A stretch of 64,000 nucleotides of DNA from Cyanophora paradoxa CCMP329 (lineage: Eukaryota; Plantae; Glaucophyta). Shown here piece by piece: positions 30,811-64,000 of the stretch; the stretch's first letter is position 1; each line of letters opens with the position of its first letter. The DNA lies in the NCBI GenBank assembly GCA_004431415.1, contig QPMI01000474.1, forward strand, positions 78,913 to 142,912, given 5' to 3'. The notes below the pieces were generated by a model, which worked only from the letters and a program-made list of their open reading frames with translations, was not told where the DNA came from and did no database searches. Position numbers and translations under genes: made by a program.

Positions 30811-31047
30811 ATTTATTACATCACTAATGATGAGGTATTTATCACAGTCGAAGTTTCGCCGAAGTTTCGGTATTTCGCTGTCGGCATCTTCAAACGCTTG
30901 TATCTCATCACCAGATCATCGAAACGCAACGTTCTGCATAGCGCTGTGAAGCGCTTGATAAGATCTACAAGACTATGTGTATATCATGTGCATATATGTA
31001 TATCAGTCATACATATATTTGGAAAAAACGAGTTTTTGCCTAGCAAA

Positions 31048-32143: not shown

Positions 32144-32149
32144 AAAACT

Positions 32150-33312
32150 CGGAGTTTTAACCCTCGGCTTATCTTAATTGATTTTGTTGATATATCTCGT
32201 ATATTCTATTTCAATCAATCGATAATCTGTGTATATCTTATCGAATATTCATTTATTTCGATTATTTTGTATTCTTTTCGATATTTTATCGTAAATTTCT
32301 CTTATTTTCCGATTAGTCTTACTGAGTCTATCGATAATCTGTATATATTTCCGAATAATATAACTGAATCTCAATTAGATCTTGCCTCTGGTTAAAACTC
32401 CGCATTTTACTATGTGTGATTGGTCTAAAAGGTAATTGATTTAATCGATATTATATTCATGTACTTTCTCGATTAAATTTAATTAAATTTAATTCATTTA
32501 ATCGGAAATATATCGCTAAACTCGATTAAGATCCATAAAAGATTCATTTGTTAAATAAAACAAATCGATCTCTTATTGAATTCAATCGTAATTATACATG
32601 AAATTGATATGTTATTATCATGTTTTAATGATTCTAAGGGGGGACCCTTAGGATTTTTGAAATAATTGGGTGTGACAGGTGTGACAGGTCTATCCCAAAC
32701 TTTTGATAGTTCATTTTATGTTATAGAAAAGTTTGGGATAGACCTGTCACACCTGTCACACAAACCATATTCAGTAAGGATCTCTTTTAATGTTAAAATT
32801 TCAGTGTTAGTTGGTGTAGTTGATTCACAAAATGCATCCTGTCACACCTGTCACACAAACCATATTCAGTAAGGATCTCTTTTATAATGAAAAACTCAGT
32901 AACAATAAGTAAGAAGTTTATCTATGTAATTCTACTTGAATAAACAAATGAAATAATCGAGTGTGACAGGTGTGACAGGTCCATCCCAAACTTTTGAGAG
33001 TTCATTTTTATGCTATAGAAAAGTTTGGGATAGACCTGTCACACCTGTCACACAAACCATATTCAGTAAGGACCTCATATATTGGTAAAATCTCAGTGTT
33101 AGTTGGTGTAGTTGATTCAAAAAATGCATTTATACTCTGATTCATTGTTATTTCCTGTGAAATTTGAGTCAACTCAACCCACTTAGTCAACCCTTGCATT
33201 GAATTCGTAACAAAATCCATATACTTTTACTACTTTTACGATTAATATGAGTCAACCTTGAGTCCACTTAAATATAAATATAATATAATAGGGGGAATCA
33301 AGGGGAGATGCT
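32150..33312 (+). repeat. second (internal) copy of the left TIR, lacking the first 15 bp
   Basis: Matches 29224-30387 at an offset of ~2925 bp. Confidence 0.9.
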
Positions 33313-33972
33313 TATAAACATATGAGTTATTGAGCCTATGATACTTACATAGTCACGCTGGTCTCGGTAAGAGGATTCCGAATCTGTTTTTATCTTTGTG
33401 AGATGATGAGTTGGTGAAGAGATACATGCGTTTTAGTGTTTTGTATCGGATTTCATGTTATGACGTCATAATGACGATGCATATGTATATGATATATATG
33501 ATATACCACGTGACTCGGGAGATCATGACGATCACGGCGATGCAGTCAGTGTGATGTTATGATGCATCATGTAATGACTCATTCAATGACTCATTAAATG
33601 ACGCAATTTGGTGTATCCCCGTTTTCATGAGCCATTAAATAACTTATTTTATGATGAAATTTGGTGTATCCCTGTTTTCATGAGCCATTAAATGACTCAT
33701 TTTATGATGAAATTTGGTGTATCCCTGTTTTTATGATTTATTACATCACTAATGATGAGGTATTTATCACAGTCGAAGTTTCGCCGAAGTTTCGGTATTT
33801 CGCTGTCGGCATCTTCAAACGCTTGTATCTCATCACCAGATCATCGAAACGCAACGTTCTGCATAGCGCTGTGAAGCGCTTGATAAGATCTACAAGACTA
33901 TGTGTATATCATGTGCATATATGTATATCAGTCATACATATATTTGGAAAAAACGAGTTTTTGCCTAGCAAA

Positions 33973-35356
33973 CTAGCTAGTTTTGGTCCTTTCTCTTAGT
34001 GTTCTCTGAGGTTTAGGGGCTGTATATGACTCCTTAGTAGTCTGAAAGTCATTATACCATCTCTGGCTATTAACCTCAGAAAGTTTCTGTGTCCCTGCTA
34101 TAGTGAGCTTTTTGAGTTCCCTGTTAACTTTCCCAGCCTTCTCCTTTCTAGCCTCTATCAAAGGCTTATCTGGGACTTCATTAGCAGCTTCTATGCCTTC
34201 TCTCCTTATAGCAGCATCAGCCCTGGCTTCCTCTTTAGCTTGCTCCAAGGCATCCACTGTAGGGGTTTCTAGATATTCAACTGCATTCACAGGCAACAGC
34301 TCATGGAAAGCAAACCTGTTTTCTATGATCTCACCAGTGGGACTCCTTAGCTTAAACTTAAAGCCTTCCCTACTATCAACAGTGTAAACCATCCTAGACC
34401 AATTGTTACCCTGTTTAGCAAAGGGTTCTTCTCAACTTTCACTCTAACAAACATGCCAGGCTGCATGGTATCAAGGTAAGCTATTGATTTCTTGAATCTT
34501 TCATCTTCTAATCCCACTATATACCTATAATGCTCCTCTGTAGTTTCGCCTGGCTTCATCTTAGTAGCTGAGTGAACTGTATTATTGTAATTATACTCAA
34601 TATCACCTAACACATCAAAGAATCTAGCTGTGTTATTAGCTATGCAATAGTTTGTGATCAGTCTCTTAATCTGCTTGTTAAAGGCTTCAATTCGACCTTG
34701 GCTTCTGTGGTCTGCAGTTCCACTCACTTGGTGTTCTATGTATTTACTAGATAAATACTCCTGGAATATTCGATTTTGGAACTCACTCCCAGCATCTGAT
34801 TGAACCTTTACTATGGGTCTTGCTACTCTCATCTCAAGCTGTTTAAATGCAGCCAATGTAGTGAGAGCTGATTTATCCCTTATAGGTATGATATACCCAG
34901 TTCTCAGTGTAGATTCCATTGCAGTCATAAAGGTATCATAGCCATTGTTTTGTTTCTTATAAGCTGGGAAAAAGAGCAAATCAATCACATAGGTATCAAG
35001 GGGTTGCCTAATTGGGACCATGGGATCTCTCTTCCTAGATATAGCAGGTGCATTGATCTGAACAACTTCTTGTTTTTTATAGAACTCTTGCAACTGCTTA
35101 TAGGATTCATCAGGTAACTCAGCCCTCATAGCTTGAAGCCCTTTGTAACCAGTTCTCACATCATAGAATCTCTTGGCAATCTTGCTGGTTTCTTTCACTG
35201 CAATAGCAACTGGGATCTCTACTGGGACAAGCTCTTTCATCTCTGACTTTTTTACAATTCGAGATTCTCCCTTTTCCTCCTTGGAACTGTGATAGGCAGT
35301 AGGTTACCTTGTAGTTGCTCAGTGGTTCTCCTAACTATTCTTCCAGTTGCTGGCAT
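33973..35356 (-). CDS. retroviral-like (rve, DDE) integrase of Polinton type, frameshifted
   Basis: YVIDL, VQSDAGSEF and GRIEAFN (D-D-E). YNNTVHSATKMKP. PGMFVRV...NWS SH3/KOW-like tail. Confidence 0.93.
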
Positions 35357-35359
35357 CTC

Positions 35360-38300
35360 TTAATTAAAAGGAACAGAATTAATACCATCTGGTAAGATGT
35401 ATCTCTTTGCATCAAAGCAGTTTAGGGCAACCCTTCTACTCACAGTGTCTATTATTGTGTGATCTGCCCTTCTTTTCTGCTTTGCAGTCACAGTCTTGCT
35501 GATACCTGCAAATAAACACTGTTTTAAATCATTAAATTGGAGTTCCTCAGTTGAAGTCCCAGAGAGCTTACTCCTCTCAATCTCAGCAGTTCTGAAACTG
35601 TAAACTTTAGCTCTCAGACCCACATACTCCAATATAGCAGAGCCAGGCATTTCATTTTTGTATTTACCTGGGGTCATTCTGGAATCACCTCCAAGGTCTA
35701 ATGCATAGGATATATTCTCTATATCTTTTTGTAGGGTCTTAGATTCGATATATAGACAAAAGGAGTCAGTATCATGGAATAGTAACTTTGCTTTTGTCCA
35801 TTGGGACCTTACAGTATCATAGAAGAACTTGTAGTTATGCAGTTTGGCTGCATCCAGAACATAAGCCCCAATAGCAACTGGCTTATCTAGCTTCACATGC
35901 TTTGTGTAAAACTCAAAGGCAACTGCTTTTTCGTTTATGGACTTGTTGATTTCACCAATGGGGAGGCTGCATATTTCATAAACAGTTTCTCACTGTTTGC
36001 AATCTTAACCACAGATCTACCTCTGCAAGATTCAATGCATTTCCCATAGATTGAGTTATTCATGAGTTTATAGAAATCAGCCTCGAATTTATTCACTGCT
36101 TTCCTTCTCATCTCAGTATTCAGCTCAATGTAGGGTTTCATTACAGGAGCCACAGTAAATGATAGGACCCTGTGAACCTTCTTTAGTTTCACCCCTTTGT
36201 CCAACAGATACTGTAGAAGAGGCTCAGAAATCACATAGTTGGTCACAGAACCAAAGGTTGCAGTTAGCTTAGGGGTCTTATCAAGCTCTTCTCCTGAGAG
36301 ATCTAATAGGCTCTTTTGATATTGTGATAATTCTGCATATTCTACTATTTTCTTGTTAATAATTAGGGGGAAATCACTGTGGTCTAGATATAGCCTAATT
36401 GGGTAATCCAGATCAACTTCCAGGAAACTGGATCTGTTATCTTGTGGGTTGAATTCGGTCTCCCATCTAAAATCACCAACTGGGATTGGCTGACTCAAAC
36501 AGTAGCCATACAAGTTGTTAGCATCAAACAGCATTATATGGGAGTTCTCACCATCAGCCTCAGCATACCTACAAGGCATTGTTGCAAAGCCACCCTGATT
36601 CCCCTCTCAACAAATTCGTATTGCTCTACATCACTTATAAGCTCTATTTTTGCCTTGGTGGTCCTAAGCATAGCATCCCAAGATAACCCAGGTGCAGATA
36701 CATAATGAACTGGGTCCAATCCATATACTGAGTGTGAAAGCCTTCTGAAAGCCTGGAATTTGCTCATTAACTCATCTACATCAGCAGCCCCAAAGTCCAT
36801 AAAATTACTTGCATCAATGAACTTGTAAAGACCCCATTGCAATGAAAGGTATTGATCAAAGTTTTTCGAAAGGATTTCGATTCGCTTTTTATCACCCATG
36901 CCTGCTATTTTTCTGAAAATGAATGTCCCACAGTCATCCATTTGGTCAACAACCACTGCTACTTTTGTTTGCTTTGAGATTCTCCTATGGAGATTGCAGT
37001 TTCTGCATGCAGGTGCAATGTAATTACCTGTGTGGTGATCATGATCCCTGCATTTGAAGTTTTCCTTGGTGAACCTCTCACTGCAAAGGTAACAGTGTTT
37101 GGTAGCTCTGTAAATAGCCTTTTGCTCATCTGTGAGTTCATTCATGGAATATTGGTGAACAGGAAATCGATTAGCTCTCTTGCTTTGGACTCCAAGCATT
37201 CAAACAGACCTCCCATTGGATCCTGACCCTCAAATCGAAACTCCTGAACATCTGCCCCAGTGACTATTCTAATGTTGACTGCTGAGACTTCCCTCTTGGA
37301 TTTCGATGCATCAATGGGGATGCTTCTATGTTCAATCTTGCAGTAAACCACAACAGGAAGCCAGACAGTTTTCCTGAGGTTTTTCAGTCCAAACTCTATT
37401 GTGGTGTCAGGCTTAGGGTGATTCCCTTTGAGAGTCTCCAATCAATGCATCTGTTTGAGTCCACATGAGCAGTGAGTTTAGCCTCAGACCTGAATCGAGA
37501 TAAGCATGTATCACAGTAGTGTAACTTTTGATCCTTGGTTTTATCAAGGGCAACTCTGAGAAGTCTTGAAAGGGACATGATAGTAATATAGTGACCATTC
37601 CCTTCATCATCATGAATGAGCATTAGATTAATCTTTTGCTTTCTGCCTGGGTTGCTGGATTGATGTAGGGATATATAACATCTCCATCCATTCCAAATAT
37701 GTTTATGCTGATGCCTGCATTTTGAGATTCGAATTTATCAATGATTTCAGCATCACAAGGAACAGGGAATGGATATTGTCGAAATTGAGAGCCAAAGGAT
37801 TGTATGTGGTTGGTGAGTATTTCCATTTGCGATATTGTGTAAGCTCACTTCTCTTGTGGAATTTACATCTTTCCTATGGATCCATGCCAAAATGGCATTT
37901 TCAAAGCAAGAATCATCAATATTTCGAATATTCACTGTGGCTCTCTTGGCTGCAATTGATTCTGGTGTTTTAACATAGCAGCCACCAGTTGGGCATAACT
38001 CATAATAGCAACTCTTAGCATTTCGATTCTCTCCAATCGATAGCTATCAACAACATTCATCTGTTCCTGACACATTTGGGCTGCTTTATTCAGCTCAGTT
38101 CGAATATTTCTCGATTTGGTTAATACAAAATAATCGCTGTAAATGTATTTCGATATCCAAACCTGTGGATTGCTGACTTTTACGAACTTGCAGATAAACG
38201 ACAAGCGAACTTTGATTGCCCTGAATTGATCCAGACTATCTCTTAAACGTTTGGTAGAGAGGTTGCAATTCTATCTAAATATTCAATCACATCTACCACA

Positions 38301-38593: not shown

Positions 38594-38702
38594 AGTTCCT
38601 AACTTGTTCCTACTAAAAGGGGAGGTTTTAAATGGGGAATTCTGAACACAAAATTTGATGAAAACTACTTAAAGAAATATCTTCTATATATATAAAAGGA
38701 CA

Positions 38703-39813: not shown

Positions 39814-40031
39814 AACATGTCTAAATTATTTTTCCCAGCATATTACTAGGCTGGGGATATGCTGTTTATTCGCTGAAATACCCATTCATCCTTTTGTATC
39901 TAAACCACTCGATATATCATGTGGATAAATTCGTAGGGATACTTTCTCGATTTCCAACAAAAATGATTGGGGACCCAAAACTACTTAAAGAAAAATCTTC
40001 TATATATATAAAAGGGACCCGATCGCTGAAA

Positions 40032-42303
40032 ATGAACGCCAAACAGACTAAATCGCTCAAATCGCTCGCTAACTGGCTCAGATCTGATGAGGAACTGTCC
40101 AAAAACATGATTATCCCAGTGAAACCTGACAGCAAAGACCCTGTTTTCAAGCATAAGGAGGTGCATGGTCCTGGGAAAAGTATGAGGAAGCGCTGGCAAC
40201 TAATCATATGTATCTTGGGGCATTCTGCTCTCAGACAACATGATGGTTATTGACTTGATGATGAGGAGGACTTTGAGAAATTCCGGGATATGTTTCCTGA
40301 TGACTTTGATGCCAATCAGCCATGGCAAAAACTAAAAAAGCTATCATGTCTACTTTAAACGACCTGAGAGTTCAATAAACTCAAAATTACCGATAAGCTC
40401 CTGGCTTTAAAGGCTTGAGAAGGTTGACCTGAAAACAATCACTGGAACTGGAACTTCTGACTGATCAATGTGTGTCCCAGTGTGAACAAGGCTTGGTAAT
40501 CTCCCCATGGGATGATACCTGTGATTTCAATGAGCCTACTGATGACTTCAAAAAGTGGATAATAGATAACTACATCTATAAGAGTGAGTATACTGCTAAT
40601 GCTACCTCACATGATGAACTGGAAAACAATATTATCAAAGAGCTGGTGGATATGGATTTATGCATCCCAATATAATCTCTAAAACTGAACTTGGCTTTAA
40701 CTTGATGCTGCTAACAAGGGACTCAATTGCCCATGCTGCAATGGTTCACATGAATCGAATAACTGGTATGTATGAAAGCTAAAGGAGATGATAACAAATA
40801 CATTGTGTCAAGCTACAGTGGAAATTGCAAAAAACGATTCATCTGCATTGGAATGCAATCTGATATCTTCAATCTTATAGATAAATCCGCTGTTCTGGTG
40901 GCGCTCATTATGATGTGAGTTTAGTATGCAAAGAGGTTCTTAAACATACTGGAGATACTCCAAAAAGTCATGGTTCAAACTCAATACTGATACTGGATTT
41001 GGAGCATGATGACACAAACCTAAAGATTTACCTAGATATAACCGTCTTGTTGTCCCCAATACCTTGGAAGGCTGTGCATTATAGTCAAAGAGCTTTAAAG
41101 GATGAGGAAACAAAGCAGCTTTCGAAGAAAGATCCAAAACATTGATGACCATTGCCAAAAATCTTAAACAATCAGGATTTCGCAAATCCCTTCTGACTGA
41201 CTTGTCCCACTGCTGAATGATGATGAATCTTGAGAAATTGACACAGTTCCATATGTATTGGATCGAAAATGTGTATTTGATCTGACCACTATGACTTTCA
41301 GAAGGTAAACTGGAAGATATGGTGAGCAAGACTGTGGTTATGACTATACTGAAAATGTAGACCCAAGAAAATAGAGCATCTCAATCAGATTTATAAAGAG
41401 ATTGTGGATGATCCAGCAGAGCGAAAGTATCTTCTGGCATCCATTGCAATTGCCCTTAGTGGATCAACTAAATCCAGAAGTTCTATATGTGACTGGTGCT
41501 GGTGCTAATGGTAAATCACTGTTCAGGAATACTGCAAACAGATATCTGTCGCTATTACAGCCTCTCGAAATATCCTATTGGACTAAGCCTAAAAAGAACT
41601 CATCAGAGCTACTCCTGAACTTGCCAAACTCCTTGGAAAGCGACTTGTATTCAGTAATGAGGCTGAAGATGTGATAAACTGCAGATCTCCAAATTAAGGA
41701 GGTCACAGGTGGAAATGAAATGACTGTGAAGCCTTGTTCAAAGACCAGTTATCCTTACCCCAATGTTTCAGGTCTACATTACAACTAATGACAATTTGAC
41801 TATAAATAAACCAGACTTTGCAATTCAAAGAAGACTTTCCTATCAGAGATTCAATAATATATTCAAGAGAAGCCAGAAGCTGGTCAAAAGAAGCTGACCC
41901 AACTCTGTTCACACTTCTACACAATGATGATGAGTATAAGATGGCTCACATGAAGATATTACTGGATATGTGGAAACAAAGAGGTTGAAGAGATCTTAAG
42001 AAGTCCCCCTCAATCGATTATTGACAGGGAATTAACTTTATAGCTGAAAATGATAGATTGGTGAATGGCTTCGAGATAATTTCGAGGTTACACATAATGC
42101 TAACGACTTTGTTTCCAGTGATATCATTACAAATCATACAAAGTGTTGATGATAAAGTTGAATGTGTATCTGTTATGAAAAGAGTAAGGAGATCTTCAAT
42201 GTTAAATCAAAAGAAAACGAGTTATGGTATTCTTGCCAGAGGATATATTGGATTCGAAAGATAACAAGGTTCAGAAGACAATGAAGATGATGCCGAATAT
42301 TAA
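40032..42303 (+). CDS. bifunctional primase-polymerase fused to a D5-like SF3 helicase, heavily frameshifted
   Basis: IIPVKPDSKDP, VIDLDD and YHVYFKRP (PrimPol-like). Walker A VTGAGANGKS at ~41490-41520. KEVTGG motif at ~41700. Confidence 0.8.
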
Positions 42304-43045
42304 AGAAAACGATTAATGATGAGATTTACATATATTTTTATAGCTTACTGAAAATGGTTTGTGTGACAGGTGTGACAGTCCATCCAAGAAAGCCTGGTGA
42401 AAAGTTGATTTTCAAAATCGATGGATAGACCTGTCACACCTGTCACACCTGTCACACCTATCGAAAAGACCAAAATTTGACAAGAATACTTAAAGCTTAC
42501 TTGATGTGTATAGTGAAGACAAAATGCAAAACTCTTGATGAGATGACCATGAATGAGTTAATAAATGCATAAAGCATGGAGATAGGGCATATATCGAAAT
42601 GTCACAGAGATTGATAGGTTACAATATGTATGCAGCAAAACCAAAGAGAATAGATCAGTAACATTCACATAACTGTTTCAGTGTCTGAGAATGCAAACAA
42701 AAAACAACAAAGCATATTTACAAAGTTATCTGTGACTTGCAATTGATTGCAAGTATAAAGCCAATTCCTTGTATATATTTTATAGCTGCCTCAGTGCATA
42801 CTGAGACCGCTTTTGCTCAATTATCTATAGACCTGGGGTCCATTGCTACTATCAGTAGGCAAATAATATTTAATCGGTCTCCCTCTGGGTCTCTGCTCCT
42901 CTTTTTGGCTTTTTGCGATAATAGGATGCCAGGGCTTGCTTTTTATACTCTCTATATGCTGGGTCCTCTATATCGTTTCTGCATTGCCAGAATGTGTCTT
43001 ATAGACCCCTCAGTAACAGGTTCATCACTGGTAAACTCGATTAAA

Positions 43046-44111: not shown

Positions 44112-44826
44112 TCAATTTATTGCTATGGACTTGGCTTTTCACTTCTTTAGGGGCTTCCTCTTTCTCTGGAGGTTTCAGTTCATCTTCTTTCTTTTTTGGC
44201 TTTCTGTGGAAGCGAGGAAATGGGAAATCTTTCACAAGCTCAGCTTTATCTACAATAGTATTTAACTGAGTTGCAGAGGACCAAATATATACTGATAGGA
44301 GTGAACATACTCTTCAAACATCTTGTAAAATCCTCTTTATTTCGCATTATATTGTATTCTTCCTCTATGGCTTCAAGTTCTTTGCGATTTGCAGCACTTA
44401 GAAACATGCATATCAGAATTAACTCGAATAGTCGAAGAGACTTTCCTTAGCTTTTTGTGATGCAGATAATGGATATTTTTCGAATGATCCAATATTTTAT
44501 CCTGTAATCTACTATCTCATTATCGATTAAATCATCTAAAAACACACATTGGTTAACAGGTTCCACCTTTTCTATTTTCTCTTGCCTCTCATCTAGCAAT
44601 TTAGCAATGTAAGGGGCATCCCTTTCCCAGTTGCAGTGTTGCACTTTATCCCAGAAATGATTGAAGCTGGTTCCACTCACAACTAATACAACATCAATCT
44701 TTTTGGCATCATGCACTGCTTCAACCAATACTTTACAGCTTCTGATTTACCAGTTGCTGATTTCCAATTGTGACTCGAAAGGGGGTCTATCATTTCACCA
44801 GCCACAAATTCATCCAAATCGTTCAT
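44112..44826 (-). CDS. FtsK/A32-like genome-packaging ATPase, frameshifted
   Basis: Walker A GKSATGKS at ~44745-44767. Walker B CVFLDD. IRVNSD arginine-finger-like motif. Confidence 0.8.
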
Positions 44827-44878
44827 TGGTATCTCTCTATAAAGAGACAGATAAAAATAATGCAGGAGACTGAAATGG

Positions 44879-45728
44879 TTTACAGGTTAGATAGGAAATC
44901 GTTTAATGCACCCTCAATATCAGTTTCGGTGAATGGGATTCTTAGGAGTTTGATATTATTAGCTTCACAGTACCGATTTTTAATTCCATCACGAATTTGG
45001 GTATCTTCAAAGGCCTTCTGACCTCCAAACTGTTCCACAGGTTTGAAATGTTGTATACCATCATATTCAATTGCAATTTTGAGAGATGGAATATAAATAT
45101 CGAATGGGAGAACTCTTTTATGCTTGCAATCAGGAAATCTGTGGATATTGAGAAGTCTAAACCAATTTCTTTTAGGGCTGCTTGAACTTTCGTCTCACCA
45201 ATAGACGATCTACATGACAGACAGCCATACCCATTGAGAAAATCACTTGGTGTCTTTTTGAATTCAAGATCACACTTTTTACAGATAATGGTAACTTTTG
45301 TTCTTGCATTAACATACTCACTTTAGATAAATCGTAGTTATCCCATAGAGTTTAAGCCTCTCTGTAATTTCTCAATCCCCATTTGCAACTTATCTTTGAT
45401 GCGATCCATTTTACATTTTGCATGCCCATCCATGCATGTGTTTGTGTGGCTTTTGATTGAAATACCTTGACATTTCTTGCAGAAAATTTTATAGGGTCAT
45501 CTCCTTAATATAAACAGATTCGAATAGTAAAGATCTTTATGTTTCGCTTCGCTCTTTGACAAACTCATGGTTAACCTATGCATTTTCCTTTTTAATATTC
45601 CACAAGGGACAGCCACATTTGTTTATGTGACTATGGGCAGCTTGAATAAACTCAGTGTTGCATTTGCATATATAATTTTTCTTCATTCCCCATGAAATTA
45701 ACTTTCGAATAATCATAATTTAGCCATG
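44879..45728 (-). CDS. Zn-ribbon repeat (DUF723-like) plus PD-(D/E)XK/Vsr-like endonuclease, frameshifted
   Basis: EYVNARTKVTIICKKC...GYGCLSC. SIGETKV...FDIYIPSLKIAIEYDGIQHF...KNRYCEANNIKLLRIPF. Confidence 0.8.
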
Positions 45729-45800: not shown

Positions 45801-47190
45801 TCATTTTTCTTTAAATGCCTTACGAAATGGTAACAATCTATAAATTAATTCTGCGTAAACCATCTTTGTCACAATAATAAAGCTATGCATGAGAGCGCGA
45901 ACATTAACATCGATTACCTTATCTGAAGGCATGTAGAGGGTGAGGAATGAAGAGGAGGAATTTGTTAAATCAACATAACCAGACTGGGCAATATTTCGAA
46001 TTGCCTTTTCTCCATCAAGGCAGAAGGATCCTGAAAGGACATAGCGATCAGCAACCTTATCCATGTTAGAGCATTTGAAGGCATCAGCAATTAGCTCAGC
46101 ACCTTTGAGTAGGGAAATTGGCTCAGTGGCAAAAAGTCGCTGACCATTTATTTCAGTTGTGAATGTTATCTTTGGAGTTGGCATAGGTCTTAAGAACACT
46201 GTGGGAGCCATTGGATTTGTCAACAGTTGCATTATCACGAACTGAAACAAGCAGAGCATATACAAGACCTGAGATTTGAGAGAGGTTAATTCGATTGGGT
46301 TGGGCATTGCCCTTGGCAGGGAAAGCACTAGCATCTACAAATCCAATATCAAGGGAGGGAATAGCCATGCCAGTAGTCTTAACTTTTTCAATTACAGTAG
46401 CGAAAAGCTCATCAGAAACATTAATAGCATGCATGTAAAGGCGAGGAGAAGTAATAGAAATACAGGGTTGTTGCACCAAGAGTAAAGTTGTGATGTTTTG
46501 ACCAACATTTGCAGAACAGTTTCAGCAGGGGCAGTTCCAAGACCATCATCTTTGAATAATCTACATCAGCTGCTGCAACAGTAAGACCACGACCACCATA
46601 GGAAGTTTCAACATAACCCTTTCCAGCATCCTTAAACCAAACAGTAACAACCATTTCACCAGATAAAGCACCAAGGGGAAGGTAGTGATTTAGCCAAGGC
46701 ACTGGATTTCAACAAAAATGAGCCACCAAGTCGGTTGGTTCCATGAGCAGGGATGCCATGAACCATGCCCATTGATCGTTTCTTTTTAGCTAGTTGATCC
46801 TCCGAATAATAGACCAGGGGGAAATGAGCAAGGAAATCAGATGGATGTAGGTGTAAGATCCATAGGTAATTTCAAGTCGCTGAACTAAAGCACCAACTGG
46901 GCGAGTGTATCCATTGCGAACTAGGTCAGTATCACCAGCAAAAGTGATGGCTGGAAGGTCGAAAGCAAGTTCGAGTTTTCCACAGAAATTGTAGCGAGGT
47001 AGCTTGAAGGAAATGCGATTTCCAACATTATTCTCAAAAGTATTGCTGGGATTCACAACAACTAGAACTGGCTTAGACTTGGATTCGAGACCAAGCATAA
47101 GGGAGTTATCCAGGAAAAAGGCTTTCGCCTCTCTGGGGTTGTTAGGGCTTCTTTCAGCGAAAGTCTTTGAAGAGTGGAAGTGATATCCAT
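45801..47190 (-). CDS. double-jelly-roll major capsid protein (putative), frameshifted
   Basis: About 450 codons, beta-rich. N-terminal NPSNTF...ISFKLPRYNFCGKLELAFDLP, YLPLGAL, C-terminal SGYVDLTN. Located between the ATPase and penton genes. Confidence 0.72.
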
Positions 47191-47293
47191 TATATTCTCT
47201 TTTATTATACTGCAACATAAAAAATCTACCAATGATCCTTAATTTATGCGAAGTTTGTAATAACTGGATAGGAAGGGTGAAGCTGCGACATTC

Positions 47294-49200: not shown

Positions 49201-50735
49201 AGGCACCTGTAAAGTCAACTCTCATTGTGGGAGCATTCACATACACAAGGGGATAAATGCGAATATATTTGATTCTGAGAAAACCTATGTAAAAAGCATC
49301 CTTGATGCTGAGAGGAAATCCACTCAATAGAGCCACATCACCTGAGTTGTGAGCATTGTTAATGTTCTCACAGACATATATTTTGTTTGCCCATCTGATC
49401 GAATAAAAGACCAGTTGATCCCATCAGTGGATGTTGCCACATTGAAAGTCTTAATAAAAGCATTGGTGTCCCCTGATCCATAGGCAATCACAGAAGAGAG
49501 TTCAAAAGTATATGGAAAAGCAACTTGAAGGTATTCAGTGGGGGTTTCCCATATCTGTTCAGGAGCATAGGCTCCAGCTTCCCAGCCAAATGCTGAAGGT
49601 CTAGCCATGAAAGGCTCTTTACCTGTCACAGAGGATGAGGCAGTAAAGGCATCATCTGCAAGCTGATACCAATTAGCATCCAAAGGAGGTGATGTAGTGA
49701 GAGTGGATGAAATGTAAGCCTTTGTAGGGTTCTTTAGTTCATAGTTTGCTACTAGAAGGCTGCAAAGCTTATTAATCATATCATTGTTTGCTGCTATGTA
49801 TGTTTCAGTGAAAGCAAGCATATCTGGGATTTTAGAAGTGTCATCCAGGGAGCTTACTATATGATTTGGAAGAGGACTGATAGCCTATAGTATCTCCCAT
49901 AATCCTGATCATAGTTGTAGGGTAACAACTCCTCCATCTTATCAAGGGCAGAAAGCTCACTTGCAGCCATGAGCATGTTAATCAATGGGCTTCCATCTGT
50001 TGAGGCAATCCATGAGAGAATGCCCCAGCTGTTACAGTCTCATAAGCATAACCCACATAATCAGACTCTAAATGTGGGTCCACCTCTCCACAAGAGATAC
50101 TTATTACTATAATATCATCATCATCACTGTAAATCTTCTTTGCATGGCTGTAACCACACACACTGGGATTATTGTTTCCCGAAATGGCACCATCAATGAG
50201 ACAGACAATACTCCCCGATTGAAATCAACAATGCTTACAGGAGAGAAATATGTAGGAGCAGCAGAAGTAGCCCTAGCAGCAATCTTACAAGGCATAAAGT
50301 TGTAATTGTTGTCATTTGTGATAAATATTGGTTTCATATTCTGAGTATCAAAGGATGTAATCACAATGTCCTTTAGGGAATCCTGTATTAGTGATTCACC
50401 AGTAACTGAATTGATTGCAGTCTCCAAGGGTCCCACATCATACTTTGTATTAAAAAGGGCATTTTCGATTATATTTCGAGGATTTGCGAAAATCAAGGGC
50501 AGTTGAGTTAGGTAAATATTGTGTAAATCGTTTGCTGTCAGTTTAGGTTCACCTGGTTTATCAGGATGCCTTATATTCAAACCTATTGCAATGATCCCAC
50601 CAGTGGAAGTTCCACTCACAAGATCCACAAGATCGATTATTCTCCTGCCAGTTCGATTTTCGATTTCTTTAGCAGCCTGGTTATGATAATGCCCCTTGCA
50701 CCCCCCGAAAAGACTTAAACGACCTTGAGAGGCAT
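49190..50735 (-). CDS. patatin-like phospholipase fused to a discoidin (F5/8 type C) domain, frameshifted
   Basis: GGARG, GTSTG, ARATSAAPTYF and IDGA...NNP. The patatin C-terminal helix runs in frame into EYLQV...FIKTFNVATSTDGINW. Confidence 0.82.
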
Positions 50736-50778
50736 CTTTTACTTATCAGGAATTTTATAAATCCATATAGTAAAAGCC

Positions 50779-53700
50779 ATGAGCTTCAATTACCCACCAA
50801 TCTAGAAACCATTCAAGATGATAATGCAAGCAGCACCAAGCATGTGAACTTTGATAATATTAAAGTAAAGGGTTCAGTTTCAATTGACCACAGCTCTGAT
50901 AATTCATCAAAGACTCAATCAAGGGAGCATGCTTTATCTGTGAATCAAACCGATCCAGAAAAGAGGATGTCAGTGTTAGCTTTTAGTTTGGGTAATGTGA
51001 AAGCAAACCAAGTGGCAGAGATCAAAGCAACAAGAAGGAGACCTAGGAAACTAAAAACCAGTGGCACTCACCCAGATATACCTTCCAGGTTCGATAGTGG
51101 TCGATTGATTTTCAATGTTCAAGATGAGCAGGGCAAACAGAACACAGCTTTGCGAATTTACAATGAGGGCAGCACTGCAAAAGCTGAGGTCCCCCAAGTA
51201 TTGCAAGTGGGTCCCATTGCCAATACAAATCAGGTCTCCTACACAAATGATGTATACCCCAAGGATATTACATATGACTTTGCGAGGAATGAGCCTTTTG
51301 GGTTTTTTACTCCAAAAGATGTCCATCAAAAAAAGCCATCAATTACAATCAACAGTAGCCCCAGTCAACCAGTAGCAATCCATTTACATCCTGATTTAGT
51401 CGAAATGGATAGGCACCTTTTGCCTTTGTATAGCAATGTGAAAGACCTTGGAATTCGAACCAGGCAATGGCGAAATATCCATGGCAGCAATGTGTATGCA
51501 AATGGTGAGAAGCTTGTAGTGAGAAAACCTAAGAGAAATCATTGAGCATTATGGTCCCAATGGACCTGTCCCATTCCCTATTCCATTTCCAATGGACCTC
51601 CCGATTTAACACCAAAGAAGCAGCCTGGAAGAGAATACACAGCAACTGAAGATGTAGCCTTTGGGCAGCATATTGTTAGTTGGGAGCAAGTTCGCAATAA
51701 ACCTATAATTGAACCCAGAAAGCAAATAGATGAGCAGTATTTACCTCCTGAAGTCGATATATTAGAGCTTGATGAATATCAATTCGTTCCAGATGAGGAA
51801 GAATATTTACCAGATGGTTTTGACCCACAAGAATATGAATATGATCATTGACCCCAATGAGGAGGAGATACTACCAGATGGCTTAGATCCTCAAGAGTAT
51901 GAGTATGAGCAGAACTATGAACCCCATGAGGAGTATTTAGCAGATGGACATGATCCACCAGCTGTTGATTATGAGCAACCTTATGAACCCCATGAGGAAT
52001 TATTACCAGATGGATTTCGACCTGAGATCTGGGAGTTCTTTCCTGATTATGAACAAATTAATAATAAACCTGCAAAGTATCCCCCAGAGGATCACAATCA
52101 TGATTGGGATGAGATCTTAGGCAAACCTCAAAAGTATCCACCAGAGGATCACAGGCATGATTGGGGTGAAATTGATGGAATACCAGAGTTCCACCAAGCA
52201 AACATGAACACACTTGGGATGAGATCAATGACCAACCAGAATTCGCAAAGGTAGAGCCTCTTGATAACTTGGGGGTTTCTCTTTACCAGACTTGCAATGT
52301 CCCTGAAAGAATCTTTTTGAATGAACACTATGTCATGTGAATGGGACACTTGCAAATTCAGCTATGAGAGGACCACTTCATATTAGGACATTACCAGGCT
52401 CTTTTGAAACCCCACCTGAACCAGGAGCAACCATACCAAATATCTTTGTGTCAAGCTACATGGAGGCTGACATTCCCACAGATACATTCAGAGTCCCAAC
52501 AGACCCAGCAACCTACCAAAATTACAACGCTGCTATACAGGTTCATGTAGCAGATGTAAGCAGTTTAGATGGCTCAAGACCAATGATAGTATTCAGCAGA
52601 GATAAATATTCTTACATTCCCATAGTGGGAACTGCAAATGATAATTATGGAAGGGCAGAGCTTGCATGGATTAAAACAGATTATGGTGGGGTTCTGGAAG
52701 CCAATCAGAATGGCTGCAAAAAACATACACAATGAGAGCATTTCGAGAGTGGTCACAGAGGATTATTAGAAGAGCAAGGATATATTGATGAAGGTGAACT
52801 CACAAATATTCTTTCTCTTTTTGTGATCAAAAATGACACAAACCTTACAGTCACTTCCAATATCTACACCAGTAACCTTTATTACAAGTAACCTATGGGC
52901 AAGTAACATTTGGACAAGAAAACTATGGCAGATGATATTTACACAAGTAATCTTACAGTGTATCGAAATATAACAATCGGAACACAAAACACTATACAAA
53001 TACTTTATAGACCTTACTATGCTGTTACTACTGTCATTGATCCAGCCCCAATTATTCCAAATTGTATATTTGCATGGAAAGCATCAGGTCAACATGGTCA
53101 GTTGATATATTATCAAGGTCAGATATATAACAGAGTTACTACACAGATACCATATTACAAATTATTCGAATTGGGAAACTGTTTATTATTATTTGAATGC
53201 AACCCTGAACAATCAAATTTCGATTGGGAAAGAATTAAACATGGCTTATAGGAATAGTGTTTCAATAGATTGGTCATTAGGTCTTACATTATTCTTTATA
53301 GGTAGGATCAATACAACAAATCCTTCTTATATGTTGAGTATAAGGGATAGTTCTTATCAAAATTGGATTGGATATGGTTGTAAAAATCAAAAGTTTGGTG
53401 TTTCACTACAAATTCAAAACGATATAGAAAATGCAACTCCTCCATTATTCGATGCATCATATATTTATAATTCGTGGAATTATTGGGATTTCACTGTTTC
53501 CTCAGAGCAAATTGTCGTAGGAATGGGTGGATTTGATATTGGAACATCATCGGGTGATTTTCTTCCACCTTCTAATTTTGCATCATTTGGTTCTTCTGTT
53601 GCTAATGGAGATCTTGCCGAAATTATCGTTTTCAATCGTGCGTTATCTATTGAAGAAAAGAACGCGGTTAGATATTATATACAATTATTGTATGGATTTC

Positions 53701-56604
53701 CAAATACGCAGCCCGTATTGAATAATGAAGATCTTAAAATTAATTCGAGCAATATATTTATTGAAAATCTCACAGTTACCAAAAATGCAACTCTACCACA
53801 TCATCCAACATCGAATGTTGTTTTAGATTGGTTAGCAAAACAAAAACACACAAAAGCAGATATTACGGATTTCGCCCATACTCACACAAAAGATCAAATC
53901 ACAGATTTCGCCCATACACACACCAAAGATCAAATCACAGATTTCGCACATACTCACACAAAAGATCAAATAACAGATTTTGCCCATACTCACACAAAAG
54001 ATCAAATAACAGATTTCGCCATACACATTTATGGGAGCATATCACAAATCCACCATTAACCTTCCACCAGATTCACACACTCATGATTATTCAGAGATTA
54101 CAAATAGCAACCACAGGCACCCATGGAGCGAAATGATGACCAGCCAGTGTTTGCACAGTTGAATGCAATCGGAAATGTTTTTAATGGAGTCACACTTTAC
54201 CAATCGAGTAATACACCTGAAAGATTGTATTTGAATGATCATTATGTAGTCTCAATGGGACTTTTACAGGTCAAACAGGCACACCAATGGTGGGAACTCT
54301 TGCAGTAAGATTACCCAGGGATCCAATCGTTAATGGAGTTTATATGGCGATTTTAATGGGAGTTAATGATACTTTCCCCAGTATCTATGTTACGAATTAT
54401 CACCCAGGAGAAACAGGACAAGTAGCGGATTTTTCAGCAGCAATTCAAGTAAATGTAACAGATCAAAGCCATATGATGGAGCAAGACCTAAAATGTTTAC
54501 AAGGGAGAAAGTTGTAAACTATCTTCCTGTTGGGACAACCCACAGATGATCACGGAAATGTGAGATTGCATGGATAAAACGACATCAGGTGGAGCCTTAG
54601 AAGTCAATCAGAGGATGGCAGCAAAAGAACTTACACAATACACCCTTTCAGGAGTAGTGACAGATGATTACCTTAACAATAAAGGATATCTTACAACAGC
54701 AGATTTAAGCAGCTATGTAACAGAAAGTGAATTGGGAACGACTCTAAATAATATACAACAGATGCAGAGTTAACAGCAGCTCTGGAAATTATTTACCTCT
54801 TACAGGTGGGACAGTTAATGGAACTGTAAACGCTACTAGTCTACAAATTGGTGGAAACACAATTCCAAAAGGATATGATTTCGATCAATTAGATGTAGTA
54901 TCAACAGATAGAAGCGCAAATAATTGGAATTTGAATTGGTCACCAAGAACAGGACAAACAGGATGTTATACACCACAAAATGATGAAGATTGTAGCGGTT
55001 GTTTTATGAGGTGGACTGTCCCCACAGGTATGAAATCATTTTATATTCAGCATATGCCTTGGTATAATGGCAGATATTTTGATATCTATGGTCAGACTCT
55101 CAATAACAATCAGCATTTCTTAAAACGTGTAAACGATTATCAAGGAATACAGTCAGTAAATCATGATGGGACAAATAATCTATCTTGTTTGTATCAATTA
55201 ATTGCGAGTTTTACAAGAATATTTATGTTCAAGGTCGAAAAGGTCGCATTCATCTTACGGGGTTTTGGTTGGAGTAGACAGAGAGCAACCGATAATGAGT
55301 TGGGCATGATTCTTGGGATAATATTTACAGTCGTCCCGCTTTAATAACAGCCGCAGACCTTCCACAAACCGCAACATGGGCAACAAATACATGGTTAAAA
55401 TCAACAGATGCAGTTGAGCGAATTTGGTTTGGTAATGGTGATTGCACATATATACGAGGGAGACCAAATGGTGATGGTGTCTCAATTGAATTCAGAACTC
55501 AGCAGATGGAGCAATTTTAAAGTCTTATAACAATGGTAACTTTTGGGTGAAAATACTATTACAGCACCCACTATTAATGCTACTACCAAACTCCAAATAA
55601 ATGGTAATGATGTCCCAAAGTTTCACACAGCGGATTCATCGAAGGAGGTATTGATTTAATAGATGTTCTTATAACGATTGGGAGTGGGCGTGGAGTTCAG
55701 CATGGGATCCATATTATAATTATGGTTCTTTCGTTTATAATAAGCAATATGATGACCAAACTTCTACCGCTTGATTGACTTCGATATACCCGATGGGATA
55801 TCACACAGGAACAGCGTTTTTAACTTATTTACCTTGGAAACGCACGACTTTTTGAAATTTGGGGAGTAATCGACAAGGAAATGAAGTTTTTATTACATCA
55901 GTGAATAGTTATCAACCATACGCCACATCTCCTGACAGTAACCACAGCGGTTTAAATAATGTTCCTATACATCTCGGTAATCGATTTTTGACTATTCGGA
56001 TTAGACCAAAGATTGGAAGAGTTCATATTATGGGTATAAGTTACATGAAAATTTGGACAGGAAATAGTTATGGTGGTCACACCGGCTATATTCATTGGAA
56101 TAATGTTTATAGTAGACCAAATCTTTTAACAGGAACTGTGGTAGTTGGTTTAATTCAAGTGATGGATACAATCGTATCCATTTTGGTAACAATACTTCTA
56201 CATACTTGAAAGGAAGGGAGATATCCTTGATTCCGAAATGAGCAAGATACTGATTTGTTACATGTATCATGGGGCGGATGTGGATAATTATTTAACACAA
56301 GGAAGTGACAGAAGATACAAAACAGATATAAAAAAGATACAGGCGCTCTTTCAGCGATTGAGAAATTAGAAGGAGTGAGTTTTAAACGAATTGGAAGCGA
56401 AAAAGACGGAACAAAATTAGGTTTAATTGCGCAAGATGTGGTAAAGGTAATACCAGAATTGTTAATGTGAAAAAGATGATGGTTACCTTATCGCTTGAAT
56501 ACACAGGATTGGTTCCAGTTCTCATAGAAGCCGTTAAAGAGTTGTCTCAGAAATGCAAGAGTCTACAAGATCAAATAGACCAAATTAAAAATGTAACAGT
56601 ATAA
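50779..56604 (+). CDS. giant fibre/tail-spike-like protein (possibly one ~1,900-aa ORF) with HxH repeats, LamG-like domain and C-terminal peptidase S74 chaperone
   Basis: YPPEDHxHDW repeats. GDLAEIIVFNRALS (LamG-like). HTHTKDQITDFA repeats. SDRRYKTDI...GLIAQDV...LVPVLIEAVKEL. No obvious intergenic gap between fragments. Confidence 0.7.
53845..54030 (+). repeat. 36-bp coding tandem repeat (HTHTKDQITDFA, ~5 copies)
   Basis: Directly visible. Confidence 0.9.
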
Positions 56605-58956: not shown

Positions 58957-59400
58957 ATGGAGACTCAATACAGGGCTTTCATGTTATGCTTGATTACAAG
59001 GCTAAACAGCTATTGCAACAGGACATGACATGTAGCTTCCTAGGTAATTGGATTATGAGAACCCTTGAACAAGCAGTATTAAGGCAAGGTATTAGGATTG
59101 TTCATAACATTGTGAGATATTTGATGGCAAACTATCACCTCCTGGATTTGCATTGGTTCTGCTATTAGATGAAAGCCATTGCACAGCTCATTGTTATTCC
59201 AATGAAGGCATGTTAGCAATTGATATATTCAGTTGTGGAAAGAAGCTCAGCATAAAACACAATCAGTGCAGATGAGATCGAAAAACAATGAATTTCTTCA
59301 CATTTGAGAAGACTGAGAGAATAAACATGATAGATTTCCGTTTTGATGGGTTTCTATAATGATGATCAGGGTGATTCTTTTTTATTACAATAACATTGAT
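58957..59400 (+). CDS. speD: prokaryotic-type pyruvoyl S-adenosylmethionine decarboxylase proenzyme (SpeD/SpeH family), frameshifted
   Basis: The frame from ~59120 reads FDGKLSPPGFALVLLLDESHCTAHCYSNEGMLAIDIFSCGKK, with the ESH autocleavage site and DIFxCG motif. N-terminal HVMLDY. Confidence 0.82.
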
Positions 59401-59491: not shown

Positions 59492-60644
59492 AGCATCTCC
59501 CTTCATTCCCCAATTATAATTAAGTGGACTCAAGGTTGACTCATATTAATCGTAAAAGTAGTAAAGTATATGGATTTTGTTACGAATTCAATGGGAGGTT
59601 GACTAAGTGGTTGAGTTGACTCAAATTTCACAGGAAATAACAATGAATCAGAGTATAAATGCATTTTTGAATCAACTACACCAACTAACACTGAGATTTT
59701 AACAATATATGAGGTCCTTACTGAATATGGTTTGTGTGACAGGTGTGACAGGTCTATCCCAAACTTTTCTATAGCATAAAATGAACTCTCAAAAGTTTGG
59801 GATGGACCTGTCACACCTGTCACACTCGATTATTTCATTTGTTTATTCAAGTAGAATACATAGATAACTTCTTACTTTTGTTACTGAGTTTTTCATTATT
59901 AAAGAGATCCTTACTGAATATGGTTTGTGTGCAGGTGTGACAGGATGCATTTTGTGAATCAACTACACCAACTAACACTGAAATTTTAACATTAAAGAGA
60001 TCCTTACTGAATATGTTTGTGTGACAGGTGTGACAGGTCTATCCCAAACTTTTCTATAACATAAAAATGAACTATCAAAAGTTTGGGATAGACCTGTCAC
60101 ACCTGTCACACCCAATTATTTCAAAATTCCTAAGGGTCCCCCCTTAGACTCAACAAAACAATGATAAAATCATATAAGTTTCATGTATAATTACGATTGG
60201 ATTCAATAAGAGTCGATTTGTTTTATTTAACAAATGAATCATTTATGGATCTTAATCGAGTTTAGCGATATATTTCCGATTAAATGAATTAAATTTAATT
60301 AAATTTAATCGAGAAAGTACATGAATATAATATCGATTAAATCAATTAACTTTTAGACCAATCACACATAGTAAAATGCGGAGTTTTAACCAGAGGCAAG
60401 ATCTATGAGATTCAGTTATATTATTCGGAAATATATACAGATTATCGATAGACTCAGTAAGACTAATCGGAAAAGAAGAGAAATTTACGATAAAATATCG
60501 AAAGAATACAAAATAATCGAAATAAATTGAATATTCGATAAGATATACACAGATTATCGATTGATTGAAATAGAATATACGAGATATATCAACAAAATCA
60601 ATTAAGATAAGCCGAGGGTTAAAACTCCGCATTTTACTATGTGT
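59492..60644 (-). repeat. right terminal inverted repeat
   Basis: Reverse complement of 29209-30387, ending ...TTTTACTATGTGT at 60644. Confidence 0.92.
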
Positions 60645-61373
60645 CAAATACGACATCCACAGTAGGAGGCAGAGTGGCTATATAAACACGAAGACGAAAA
60701 ACAGGACATAACACGTTGCCTGGAAGAGCCGAAATAAAAAGCTCGTGACCAATCTGAGTCTGATCTGTTTTAGAGCGAGAGACGCGGAGGACCATGCCAT
60801 CTGGCGGAAAGATAAATGAGGACCGCCGAATTTGCACAGTCTCAGAGCGACGGAGGAGCCAAAGAAACCGACGGTGATCATAGCAATAGAGCGACGATGG
60901 GTCTGTATGGAACACGATCGGAAGCTACCGCTAGCCGGCGAATATGTTCGACCGAAGGACGGCCGCTGGGCGAGTGGGGCCATCGCCCAGGACTCGGCGC
61001 AAGCCGTGAGGACGTGCTGAAGAAGCACTGAGCTGAAAAACTGAGGTATCAAGCGCAAGGTCTCACACTCATTACGAACTGCAGAAAAAGCTACATTTAT
61101 AGTTGAGAAGACGTAGTCATCGTCAGCAATATCGCACAAAAAACCGGCTAGAACCTCAGCATCGACGGGAAAAGGTAGAACACCCAGCTGAATGCAGAAT
61201 GCGAAAACGGCCAACCCACATTGCATATGGCATCTCGCGTGGATGGGGCAGATGCTTTGGTTTGCTAGAACGTAATGCGAGCACAGATGTGGGCCCAACG
61301 AGCTGCATCCACTGCAGGGTATGGTTAGAAGCATGAGGGTGTGCGCTCGATTGCATTTATAATTATTTGACAC
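60645..61373 (-). pseudogene. tyrosine recombinase, truncated by the viral right end
   Basis: FFG.LRRSE and SKTDQ...LCPV. The HxxR and catalytic Tyr region is missing beyond 60645. Confidence 0.8.
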
Positions 61374-61403
61374 TAGTTTGCAATTGGGTACAGCTAAACT
61401 GAA

Positions 61404-63304
61404 CTAGAAAGCGAGGAGCAGCCACTCAGGAAGAGCAGCACGAGTTGGACCGAAAAGGCATACTGTGTGGCCCCGACCAAGATGCAGAGGGGGCTCCACA
61501 GCTGCAGCCTGCAAGATAGGCCACCATGGCTGCGAGGGCCATTCGGGTACTACAACAATCATCCGAGCTCGACAAGCTTGAGCATGACGAACCACCCGCA
61601 GTAGGACTGCAGGGTCGGGGAAAACATAATTAAAATCACGAGACCAATCAACAGTGAGCAGTCTACTGCCTCTGCAAGGCGGTCAAAAGGATCAATGCTA
61701 TTATAGCGAGGGACACGTGCAGAGGAAGCTAATGCCATTCGATCGACATCAGGCAAGCCATATCTGTTACAATGCGACGGAAAACAGCATCGGAAAGCTG
61801 ATAGTCAGCAGGGGCAAACCAGCGACTAAGATAATCGGCGAAATTATTGGTTTCTCCAGGTATCCACTCAGCATCCATGAAGGCACAATTTTGCAGGCGA
61901 AATTCCAATTTCCTTGGCGATTAATGTAAGCTCGGGGCTACGACCGCCACCATTAAGAATGTACTGCACTGCATTTGTGTTATCTGAGCGAACTAGTAAA
62001 TTAACGTGCTGCAGGTAAGGACTGAAATGATGCAGAGCACGAATAATGGCGGTCATCTCACGCCATGCAGGCGTCTGGGCCGACTCTGCAGGAGTCCACT
62101 GTTGTTGGAATGAGAGATCGCCAACCTCGGTGGTGACAAAACCACCAAGACCGATCTTGCTGGCATCCGTCGTAACAACGAAATTCGCTCTGGCCGGATG
62201 GCACACCGCCCATTATAGCGGGCGAGTTTGCATGCCACCAACAAGCTCCTCCTGGGCCTCCGGCGATACCACCGCCGGGGCATTCCACCGAAATTGTCGC
62301 TGGGTAATATCAATGTTGCGATAAATGGATCGAGTATGAATGCGAGCGGTGCAATAGCTAGGCCATTGACATAAGCACACCGACAATCGAAGTGAGTGTA
62401 CGAGCTGACATCTGAAATTGCACGCCTCTAGCCTGGCACGACTGGATGCGCTTAGCTGCGTCCTTTAGCCGGTCCTGAGCTTACTAAGCTTCTGCAGAGG
62501 ACCTCAAACATCATCGATGTGGAATCTACAATAAACCCTAAAAATTCGACACGCTGTGCAGGCTCAAGGGCCGATTTCTCATTAATGAATAAGTGCAGGT
62601 GGCGAAAAGATCGAGAATGAAATTGCGAAGATTAACAGCGGCCTGGTACGTGGGAGCCGCAAACCAGAAATCATCGACATACGATACCACGGTAATACCG
62701 TGTGCGCGGAAAGAAATTTAATGACCTGACGTATGATCTTGGTGAATGCATATGGGCATGTGAGAGCCCGAAGGGTAAAACGGTGTATTCGAAGAAAGTA
62801 CTATCGTACTGGAAGCCAGGTACGAGAAATATTGCGGGTCTACCGGTACATGATGATATCCCGACTCGAGGTCGATAGTAAACATAAACCAGCCAGGTCG
62901 CAGCAAGGCGATGACCTCGCGCATATTTTTATAGCGAAAAGGGACAGGAGGAAGACCTCGATTTGTTGGGCGGCCATCCCAATCAGTCTGAGCTTATCAC
63001 CAGTCTTCTTTGGAACCGTAAATAGCGAGCAAAACAATTTTCGGGGGCTTGGGGCCACCCGAATAGCGCCGGTACCGAGCAGCTTCTGAATTTCTGCCCG
63101 AATGAAGTACTCTCACGAGGCGCTGAGATTGACCAGCATTGTAATTACACTAGGAGGCAGATGCTCAACGCCAGCAAGAGGGTAGCCGTTCTGAGCCATG
63201 AAAAGGATGTAATCACTTGTTCCGATTGCACGCCATGCCGCCAAGGCATCCGCACTTCCGAGACAGCGAGCAGTAAAACCTGACAGAAAAACAACAGCAC
63301 GCAA
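61404..63304 (-). CDS. DIRS-type RT-RNase H-(Dam-like) polyprotein, frameshifted
   Basis: FTIDLESGYHH, SYVDDFW (~62670), TDASKIGLGG, REMTAI, RSDN, and VVPEWPSQPWWP. Confidence 0.88.
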
Positions 63305-64000
63305 TTAATAATGCACGAGAATACAGGCTCGAGGCCGCCCGCAAGGGAGGAATTATATAGACAGCAGAAACAGCATCCATATATATAGGAGGGTTGGGTG
63401 GGAGCAAGAAGCGAAGCTGCTATCAAGCAACTCTGAGAGAAGCTGCAGCAGCTGCAGCGATAGCTCACTGCTGCAGCTCTTAGGAAGCTCGTAGGACTTG
63501 TTGCAGGTGCAACAAGTACCCAAGAAGTACTTGTTGCGAAGCAACAGAAGTGTGAATTTATGTAACATATACATTATTCACGCTGTCCGAAGTACGTTAT
63601 ACTACGTTCCTCGTATAACAACTATTCGGACAGCGCTCATTTCGTATATTGCAATTGAGGTATACTTGTACAATTGCCATGAAGAGCAAAAGAGCGAAGG
63701 CCGAGAGCCTGCAGACGAGTGCAAGCCTCTAACGGCACACAGAAGCACACATATATGTGAAATGCGTATGTATAATGCCATCGATGCGTTCGGTCGCCAG
63801 TCAGTGCACGAGCGATTTATGGGGGAGGCGTGCCTGAACTCCAGATGCTTGAACTGCGCAAGGGAAAGAAAAAATGGCGACCGAATCTCCATCTCCGGCG
63901 AGGGAGTATGCACTAGTGCCGTGCGCACTGAAAAGAAATACAGCAACAGATGCCACGCGAGGGCAGAGCTGTCCTGACAATTTGCAAGCAATAAATGTCG

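Follow-up and report, generated by a model that had tools for sequence, protein, structure and literature searches.

A Polinton-like virus in the genome of the glaucophyte Cyanophora paradoxa CCMP329 carries a gene for a pyruvoyl decarboxylase of the SpeD/AdoMetDC fold, and this enzyme is likely to turn arginine into agmatine (SpeDA) rather than to decarboxylate SAM. The gene occupies positions 58957–59346 on the plus strand of the window, the whole stretch of 64,000 nucleotides that was analysed, and was delimited from Pfam, short-read contigs, an open frame, and a phylogenetic tree. It is a real gene under constraint, and it recurs across its family of viruses.

Six-frame translation of the window places the motif SPPGF...LLDESHCTAHCY...LAIDIFSCG at 59108–59272 on the plus strand, with the N-terminal part of the protein in other frames. 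Comparison with short-read contigs revealed nine one-base losses in the gene, between 58973 and 59320. Seven of the nine breaks are absent from the contigs of all four public runs that were compared for this organism, and the other two from those of three. Placing an X at each break produces an open frame that extends from the ATG at 58957 to a stop at 59344–59346 and encodes 132 amino acids, and the ends of this read-through protein resemble those of homologs of 128–133 amino acids. Leaving any one of eight breaks uncorrected leads to an early stop, while the ninth alters the tail only. The entire gene is covered by a single contig (X15 record 1), which has 17 substitutions and 12 gap letters, three of these gap letters being beyond the stop. 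The contigs contain 26 substitution rows, and exclusion of two beyond the stop and one adjoining a break leaves 23 variant sites, with 19 located at the third codon position and 18 synonymous (p about 1e-6 to 1e-7). The element holds a single A/T run of seven or more where 10.9 would be expected, whereas four control viral loci are enriched in such runs. Because the contigs do not have the breaks and because of this opposite behavior of A/T runs, the nine breaks are likely to be long-read errors, although pooled contigs cannot prove this single copy intact. Some contigs differ at 14–15 of about 100 bases across the gene core, which indicates that additional, diverged versions of it are present in the organism.

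The 55-amino acid piece encoded at 59108–59272 matches Pfam PF02675 (AdoMet_dc) with 38.2 bits, above the cut-off of 25 (E 2e-9). Three residues of the Thermotoga maritima enzyme, S63, H68, and C83, are kept in the window protein as Ser75, His80, and Cys95. Ser75 (59174–59176, plus strand) belongs to an ESH motif and aligns with S63, whose role in self-cleavage is described in PMC10407285; the proenzyme is predicted to cut itself at this serine, giving the pyruvoyl cofactor. Cys95 (59234–59236, plus strand) aligns with the catalytic C83. His80 begins the sequence HCYSN (59189–59203, plus strand), where the SAM decarboxylases of T. maritima and phage S-PM2 have HTWPE; HCYSN resembles instead the HCYSE and HCYAD of assayed arginine decarboxylases. 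The W70-P71-E72 of T. maritima is replaced by Y-S-N; W70 and E72 have a role in SAM binding. The predicted fold of a giant-virus relative that is about 49% identical (P0020, pLDDT 96) matches the AdoMetDC structures of Aquifex and Thermotoga (E 4e-9). By profile and alignment, the window protein is a member of the SpeD/AdoMetDC-fold pyruvoyl decarboxylase family. In the case of TIGR03330, which has a cut-off of 75.65, full-length relatives score 45–63 bits and two assayed arginine decarboxylases likewise fall below the cut-off; the 55-amino acid window piece, as opposed to the full read-through, scores 37.8, and the S-PM2 control scores 133.

The earlier note had recognized a motif of the short prokaryotic-type family and the AdoMet_dc fold family, both of which are borne out by these matches, and had supposed a single frameshift artefact; the artefact is upheld by the contigs, but the breaks number nine and not one. 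Its description of the surroundings as a ~28 kb Polinton-like element likewise agrees with the inverted repeats and with the matches to rve and to protein-primed PolB.

The element is 28.5 kb in length and 38% GC, as compared with 72% on the left flank, which is intron-like host sequence. Terminal inverted repeats of about 1.14 kb that are 97% alike lie at 32143–33277 (left) and 59514–60644 (right). The decarboxylase is the last gene of the element ahead of the right repeat, which starts about 170 bases past it. The left repeat has a second copy (29209–30352) in a 2.9-kb duplication. Inverted repeats, a size within 14–40 kb, the drop in GC, the protein-primed polymerase, and the integrase identify the element as a Polinton-like virus. 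The rve-type integrase (34350–35240, minus strand) has a Pfam rve match of E 7e-5 that is under its cut-off, and the protein-primed DNA polymerase B (35363–37199, minus strand), in frameshifted pieces, has a match to DNA_pol_B_2 above cut-off (E 9e-11 on 35938–36579). A patatin lipase followed by a discoidin (F5/8 C) domain occupies 49327–50742 on the minus strand (Pfam E 2e-14 and 4e-7, respectively). Discoidin-patatin has been reported in glaucophyte and rhizarian elements (PMC12220804). One or more likely fibre genes with a terminal S74 chaperone domain lie within a putative extent of 53106–56601 on the plus strand (Pfam Peptidase_S74, E 3e-10 on 56309–56467). Two further assignments, neither with a Pfam match, come from motifs: a piece of a likely D5-type helicase (41375–41671, plus strand; Walker A GAGANGKS) and a likely A32-type packaging ATPase in pieces (44249–44886, minus strand; ATGKS and FLDD). 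A likely major capsid protein, also in pieces (45804–47293, minus strand), resembles the N-terminus of giant-virus capsids (ESM Atlas 0.95 to Capsid_N clusters, with a low recognition score) and is best regarded as a lead. No relatives of two capsid pieces were found in IMG/VR, and a capsid profile made from fetched viral loci, which comprised one sequence only, gave no match. The majority of the element's genes are seen as fragments. No target-site duplication was found, and the flanks of the element differ; such duplications are known in only part of rve-bearing elements (PMC12220804).

The substrate was approached through phylogeny. In one clade of SpeD homologs, the enzymes act on arginine but on neither ornithine nor lysine; the clade includes proteins of Poseidoniales, MGII archaea, Gimesia, Solirubrobacter, Nannochloropsis, and Tribonema (PMC10407285). 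Archaeal and Solirubrobacter genes of this clade gave no spermidine rescue in ΔspeD E. coli, and changes of substrate have occurred no fewer than three times within the family (PMC10407285). After removal of six short rows for the first tree, a second tree was made from 84 rows picked from the 182 of the first and from four anchors. The SAM decarboxylase anchors were the enzymes of phages S-PM2 and phiYS40, both assayed (PMC9992855). Two assayed arginine decarboxylases in the tree were KAG5182568 of Tribonema and XP_005856029 of Nannochloropsis, identified with our homologs P0250 and P0329 by accession and active, of Arg, Orn, and Lys, on arginine alone (PMC10407285 Table 2). The assayed archaeal DAC51064 and AIF02979 and the Gimesia protein were not among the cluster members listed, which represent part of each large cluster.

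The window protein and both assayed arginine decarboxylases fall in a 63-row clade (support 100/100, from an alignment of 132 columns in which the bootstrap is unsettled), and the same clade holds marine archaeal genes adjoining speY. Path lengths from the window protein are 2.5–2.8 to the assayed arginine decarboxylases versus 6.6–9.0 to the S-PM2 and phiYS40 enzymes. Similarly, the window protein scores 113 bits with a profile of the cellular clade versus 46 with one of SAM-type rows. Its core is 62% identical to XP_005856029 over 39 amino acids; along the full length it shares 35% identity over 128 amino acids with the closest enzyme that has been assayed. In an AU test, a tree uniting the window protein and the SAM-type outgroup was not rejected (log-likelihood 24.8 lower, p 0.129); an uncertain root on a long branch is the probable cause, but the result stands. 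PMC10407285 marks a conserved proline (gamma in its Fig. 8) for SAM decarboxylases, which may be that of HTWP. The missing HTWP proline was dropped as a stand-alone marker of arginine versus SAM decarboxylases, as it is not decisive by itself: the assayed SAM decarboxylase of phiYS40 (L242:259-693) also does not have it. Taken together, the tree and the profiles make it likely that the window enzyme is a SpeDA; it belongs to a subclade known from sequences alone.

The cellular kin of the window protein provide a genomic context. Among the best 80 of 527 GTDB matches, 79 titles name archaeal MAGs, many of them Poseidoniales or Thalassarchaeum. Of these 80, 77 have a DHS-like gene next to or fused with the decarboxylase, and 20 have an agmatinase-like gene next to it. 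Metagenome loci gave a similar picture, with a DHS-like gene in 74 and an agmatinase-like gene in 11 of the best 80 of 478 matches. Fifteen genomes picked from the 80 GTDB matches, of unstated completeness, all have an arginase-family gene, and a spermidine synthase was found in none. SpeY depends on agmatine (PMC13625781). The clustering with speB, speY, or aguA/B seen in 77 of 80 cellular loci does not occur in the element or in any of three virus records carrying the decarboxylase family; it serves as context for finding candidates and is no biochemical requirement. Fusions were scanned for in 28 long homologs picked from 150 listed, with domains of DS (5), PQ-loop (4), methyltransferase (4), arginase family (1), and SET (1) being observed, and spermidine synthase in none of the 28.

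Genes for the arginase family, agmatine deiminase, DS, and spermidine synthase were not found within the window, nor in the three virus records, so the viral carriers give no pathway context. The failure to find spermidine synthase weighs little because, after a motif search of loci that came back empty, the query was the distant E. coli SpeE and the element is frameshifted.

Three other explanations were weighed against an arginine decarboxylase. The enzyme might be a true SAM decarboxylase, as the earlier note had proposed, providing decarboxylated SAM for spermidine or draining SAM to counter methylation silencing. The Pfam and TIGR03330 family names accord with this, as do the assayed class 1b SAM decarboxylases of giant viruses (PMC9992855) and the AU test result, and the four relatives fused to SAM-dependent methyltransferase domains oppose the arginine reading. 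However, relatives score well under the TIGR03330 cut-off, unlike S-PM2, and both the 63-row clade and the profile scores place the window protein elsewhere; close cellular kin, at least in the 15 genomes, are without spermidine synthase. None was found in the element either, although a eukaryotic host would supply its own. On balance we regard SAM decarboxylation as unlikely, and the label "SAM decarboxylase" is probably wrong for this gene. Depletion of SAM is likewise unlikely given the placement in the arginine clade and the distance from SAM enzymes, and the same tree, profile, and gene-context evidence leaves it unsupported. The remark in the same note that some family members act on arginine or ornithine was right.

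It is very unlikely, in our estimation, that the viral subclade has switched once more, to ornithine or another amino acid or amine. The ornithine-diagnostic pattern of Gln, Thr, Phe, and Tyr (PMC10407285) is wholly missing, the window having LLLDESHCTAHCY against the VQLIETSLVSGHF...Y of examples. The repeated switching within the family (PMC10407285) lends this idea some appeal, as does the Asn that follows HCYS in the window protein where most kin have Asp or Glu, but two archaeal loci (L014 and L015) also have HCYSN. Lastly, this copy could be a decayed pseudogene, or the gene a passenger without a role for the virus, since the short-read contigs pool many copies and most of the element is in pieces. 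Against this, all nine breaks are one-base losses and A/T runs are depleted, as expected of long-read error; the variants are mostly synonymous; and the domain occurs in 42% of glaucophyte elements (PMC12220804 Table S6). Contigs of two runs that may be RNA cover the gene, which by itself says nothing about expression. Such decay or idleness is quite improbable.

The nearest protein to that of the window is P0001, on an unplaced 800-base contig, followed by a group at 47–49% identity. Contigs of this group (L002–L004) encode a giant-virus major capsid, D5 helicase, Erv1, and RNase III. P0001 is the sister of the window protein in the tree (100/89), and the pair joins the giant-virus group (97/84). 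Further family members occur in two giant-virus bins and one giant-virus contig (L083–L085). In all six of these giant-virus loci, the genes of the arginine-decarboxylase-like clade stand alone, and no agmatinase, agmatine deiminase, DS, or spermidine synthase was found in two bins that are 91% complete. Among cultured phages there was no close homolog (best identity to P0020, 37%).

A second small virus, IMG/VR contig L082 (18,273 bases; also L244), has a decarboxylase of the family at L082:5367-5741, along with an A32 ATPase, a penton-like gene, a likely capsid gene of 451 amino acids, and a cysteine protease. Its decarboxylase is placed with the one from giant-virus bin L084 (96/92), and a tree uniting it with the window protein was rejected (AU p 0.0005). 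The two small viruses therefore came by the family separately. Neither the capsid and ATPase nor the polymerase-side proteins of the L082 virus match the window element meaningfully, and its protease reaches E 0.05. A more tentative idea is that Polinton-like and virophage-type viruses repeatedly took a stand-alone arginine decarboxylase from the giant-virus gene pool, with agmatine serving as a capsid counter-ion or with arginine drain disturbing the polyamine supply of a co-infecting giant virus. We hold this to be possible but doubtful, and the effect on a co-infecting giant virus is speculation. If true, it would represent a metabolic weapon or auxiliary gene in a class of virus deemed too small for one.

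Polinton-like viruses with this domain have been tabulated previously. According to Table S6 of PMC12220804, from 2025, PF02675 occurs in 66 of 156 elements from glaucophytes, 45 of 706 from Rhodomonas lacustris, 10 of 177 from Cryptomonas borealis, and 17 of 57 from C. pyrenoidifera, and is absent from all 17 reference PLVs and all 40 virophages; we verified the column order against a count stated in the main text. The enzyme is thus common in some lineages. The gene had been called unexpected in a Polinton-like element, which holds only in part, as the domain is counted in 138 such elements, although it goes undiscussed there: the main text of PMC12220804 has no mention of decarboxylase, AdoMet, adenosyl, polyamine, or spermidine. 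The glaucophyte row of Table S6 resembles our element: besides PF02675 it lists A32 ATPase, rve, pPolB, lipase, and S74, and the usual models overlook its capsid. In that paper the domain is counted under its Pfam name only, and what the cryptophyte genes share with ours is the Pfam domain. The available text of PMC9992855 does not mention Polinton, and no discussion of a gene of this kind in Polinton-like viruses was found in the literature searched, including the available parts of PMC10120064, PMC7805220, PMC9952930, and PMC11633385. A 2023 virosphere survey, in its available text, places arginine decarboxylase activity of the SpeD fold in bacteriophages only. Within this literature, the arginine reading for the domain in Polinton-like viruses is new.

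Among characterized enzymes, SpeDA (Li et al. 2023, PMC10407285) is most like the window protein in clade (100/100), SPPGF...DESH...HCY core, length class, and catalytic Ser, His, and Cys. The window gene differs from it in residing in a small eukaryotic virus, in being alone without speB or speY, in having no intron or N-terminal extension, and in its separate subclade. Class 1b AdoMetDC/SpeD (T. maritima, PDB 1TLU; S-PM2; and the giant-virus enzymes of PMC9992855) shares the fold and self-cleavage residues, but the window protein has HCYSN for HTWPE, a long tree distance, relatives under the TIGR03330 cut-off, and no spermidine synthase partner. The pyruvoyl ADC of pelagiphage HTVC201P and the PLP-dependent ADC of chlorovirus PBCV-1 (PMC9992855) offer a parallel of a virus producing agmatine in its host. 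The HTVC201P enzyme is of separate bacteriophage origin according to PMC10407285 and is outside the tree made here, whereas that of PBCV-1 has a different fold and is accompanied by downstream enzymes.

We propose that the 132-amino acid SpeD-fold proenzyme would self-cleave at Ser75 to yield a pyruvoyl enzyme, which would decarboxylate L-arginine, yielding agmatine plus CO2, as a conserved accessory gene of a multi-copy family of Polinton-like viruses. As the virus has no partner enzyme, those of the host would convert the agmatine to putrescine and longer polyamines; alternatively, it might be used directly as a polycation. Either route could aid viral translation and DNA packing while the element is active. 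This explanation as a whole, a self-cleaving SpeDA-type accessory gene that makes agmatine for the virus, appears probable to us. Given an arginine substrate, the chances that the virus benefits are about even. If agmatine is made, a 28-kb virus could tap host polyamine metabolism. For studying the action of Polinton-like viruses on their hosts and on giant viruses, a 132-amino acid, cofactor-free enzyme provides a one-gene handle that can be tested at the bench. The results also suggest that some genes labelled "SAM decarboxylase" in giant viruses and small eukaryotic viruses encode arginine decarboxylases.

Several minor features were observed among the homologs and in the window. PQ-loop proteins carry cationic amino acids, and in four homologs (P0065, P0096, P0128, and P0166) a PQ-loop membrane domain is fused to the decarboxylase, suggesting transport coupled to decarboxylation. 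The methyltransferase fusions (P0106, P0136, P0162, and P0184) are eukaryote-like and NNMT-like, two of them also with DS, and represent a possible route to methylated polyamines. In the window, the left 2.9 kb of the element (repeat and integrase) forms a tandem pair at 29217–35068 that is 99.8% identical, and which is either a real duplication or an assembly artefact. The right flank (60645–64000) is 50% GC and has a reverse-transcriptase RNase H match (61871–62206, minus strand), and is likely a retroelement. A TGTGACAGG repeat motif is located in the terminal repeats and once internally (29700–30250, 42340–42460, and 59600–60160), and may be where a protein binds or an origin. A 39-base AT-rich direct repeat with the end TATATATATAAAAGG (38661–38699 and 39977–40015) is located ahead of two ORFs and is a promoter candidate.
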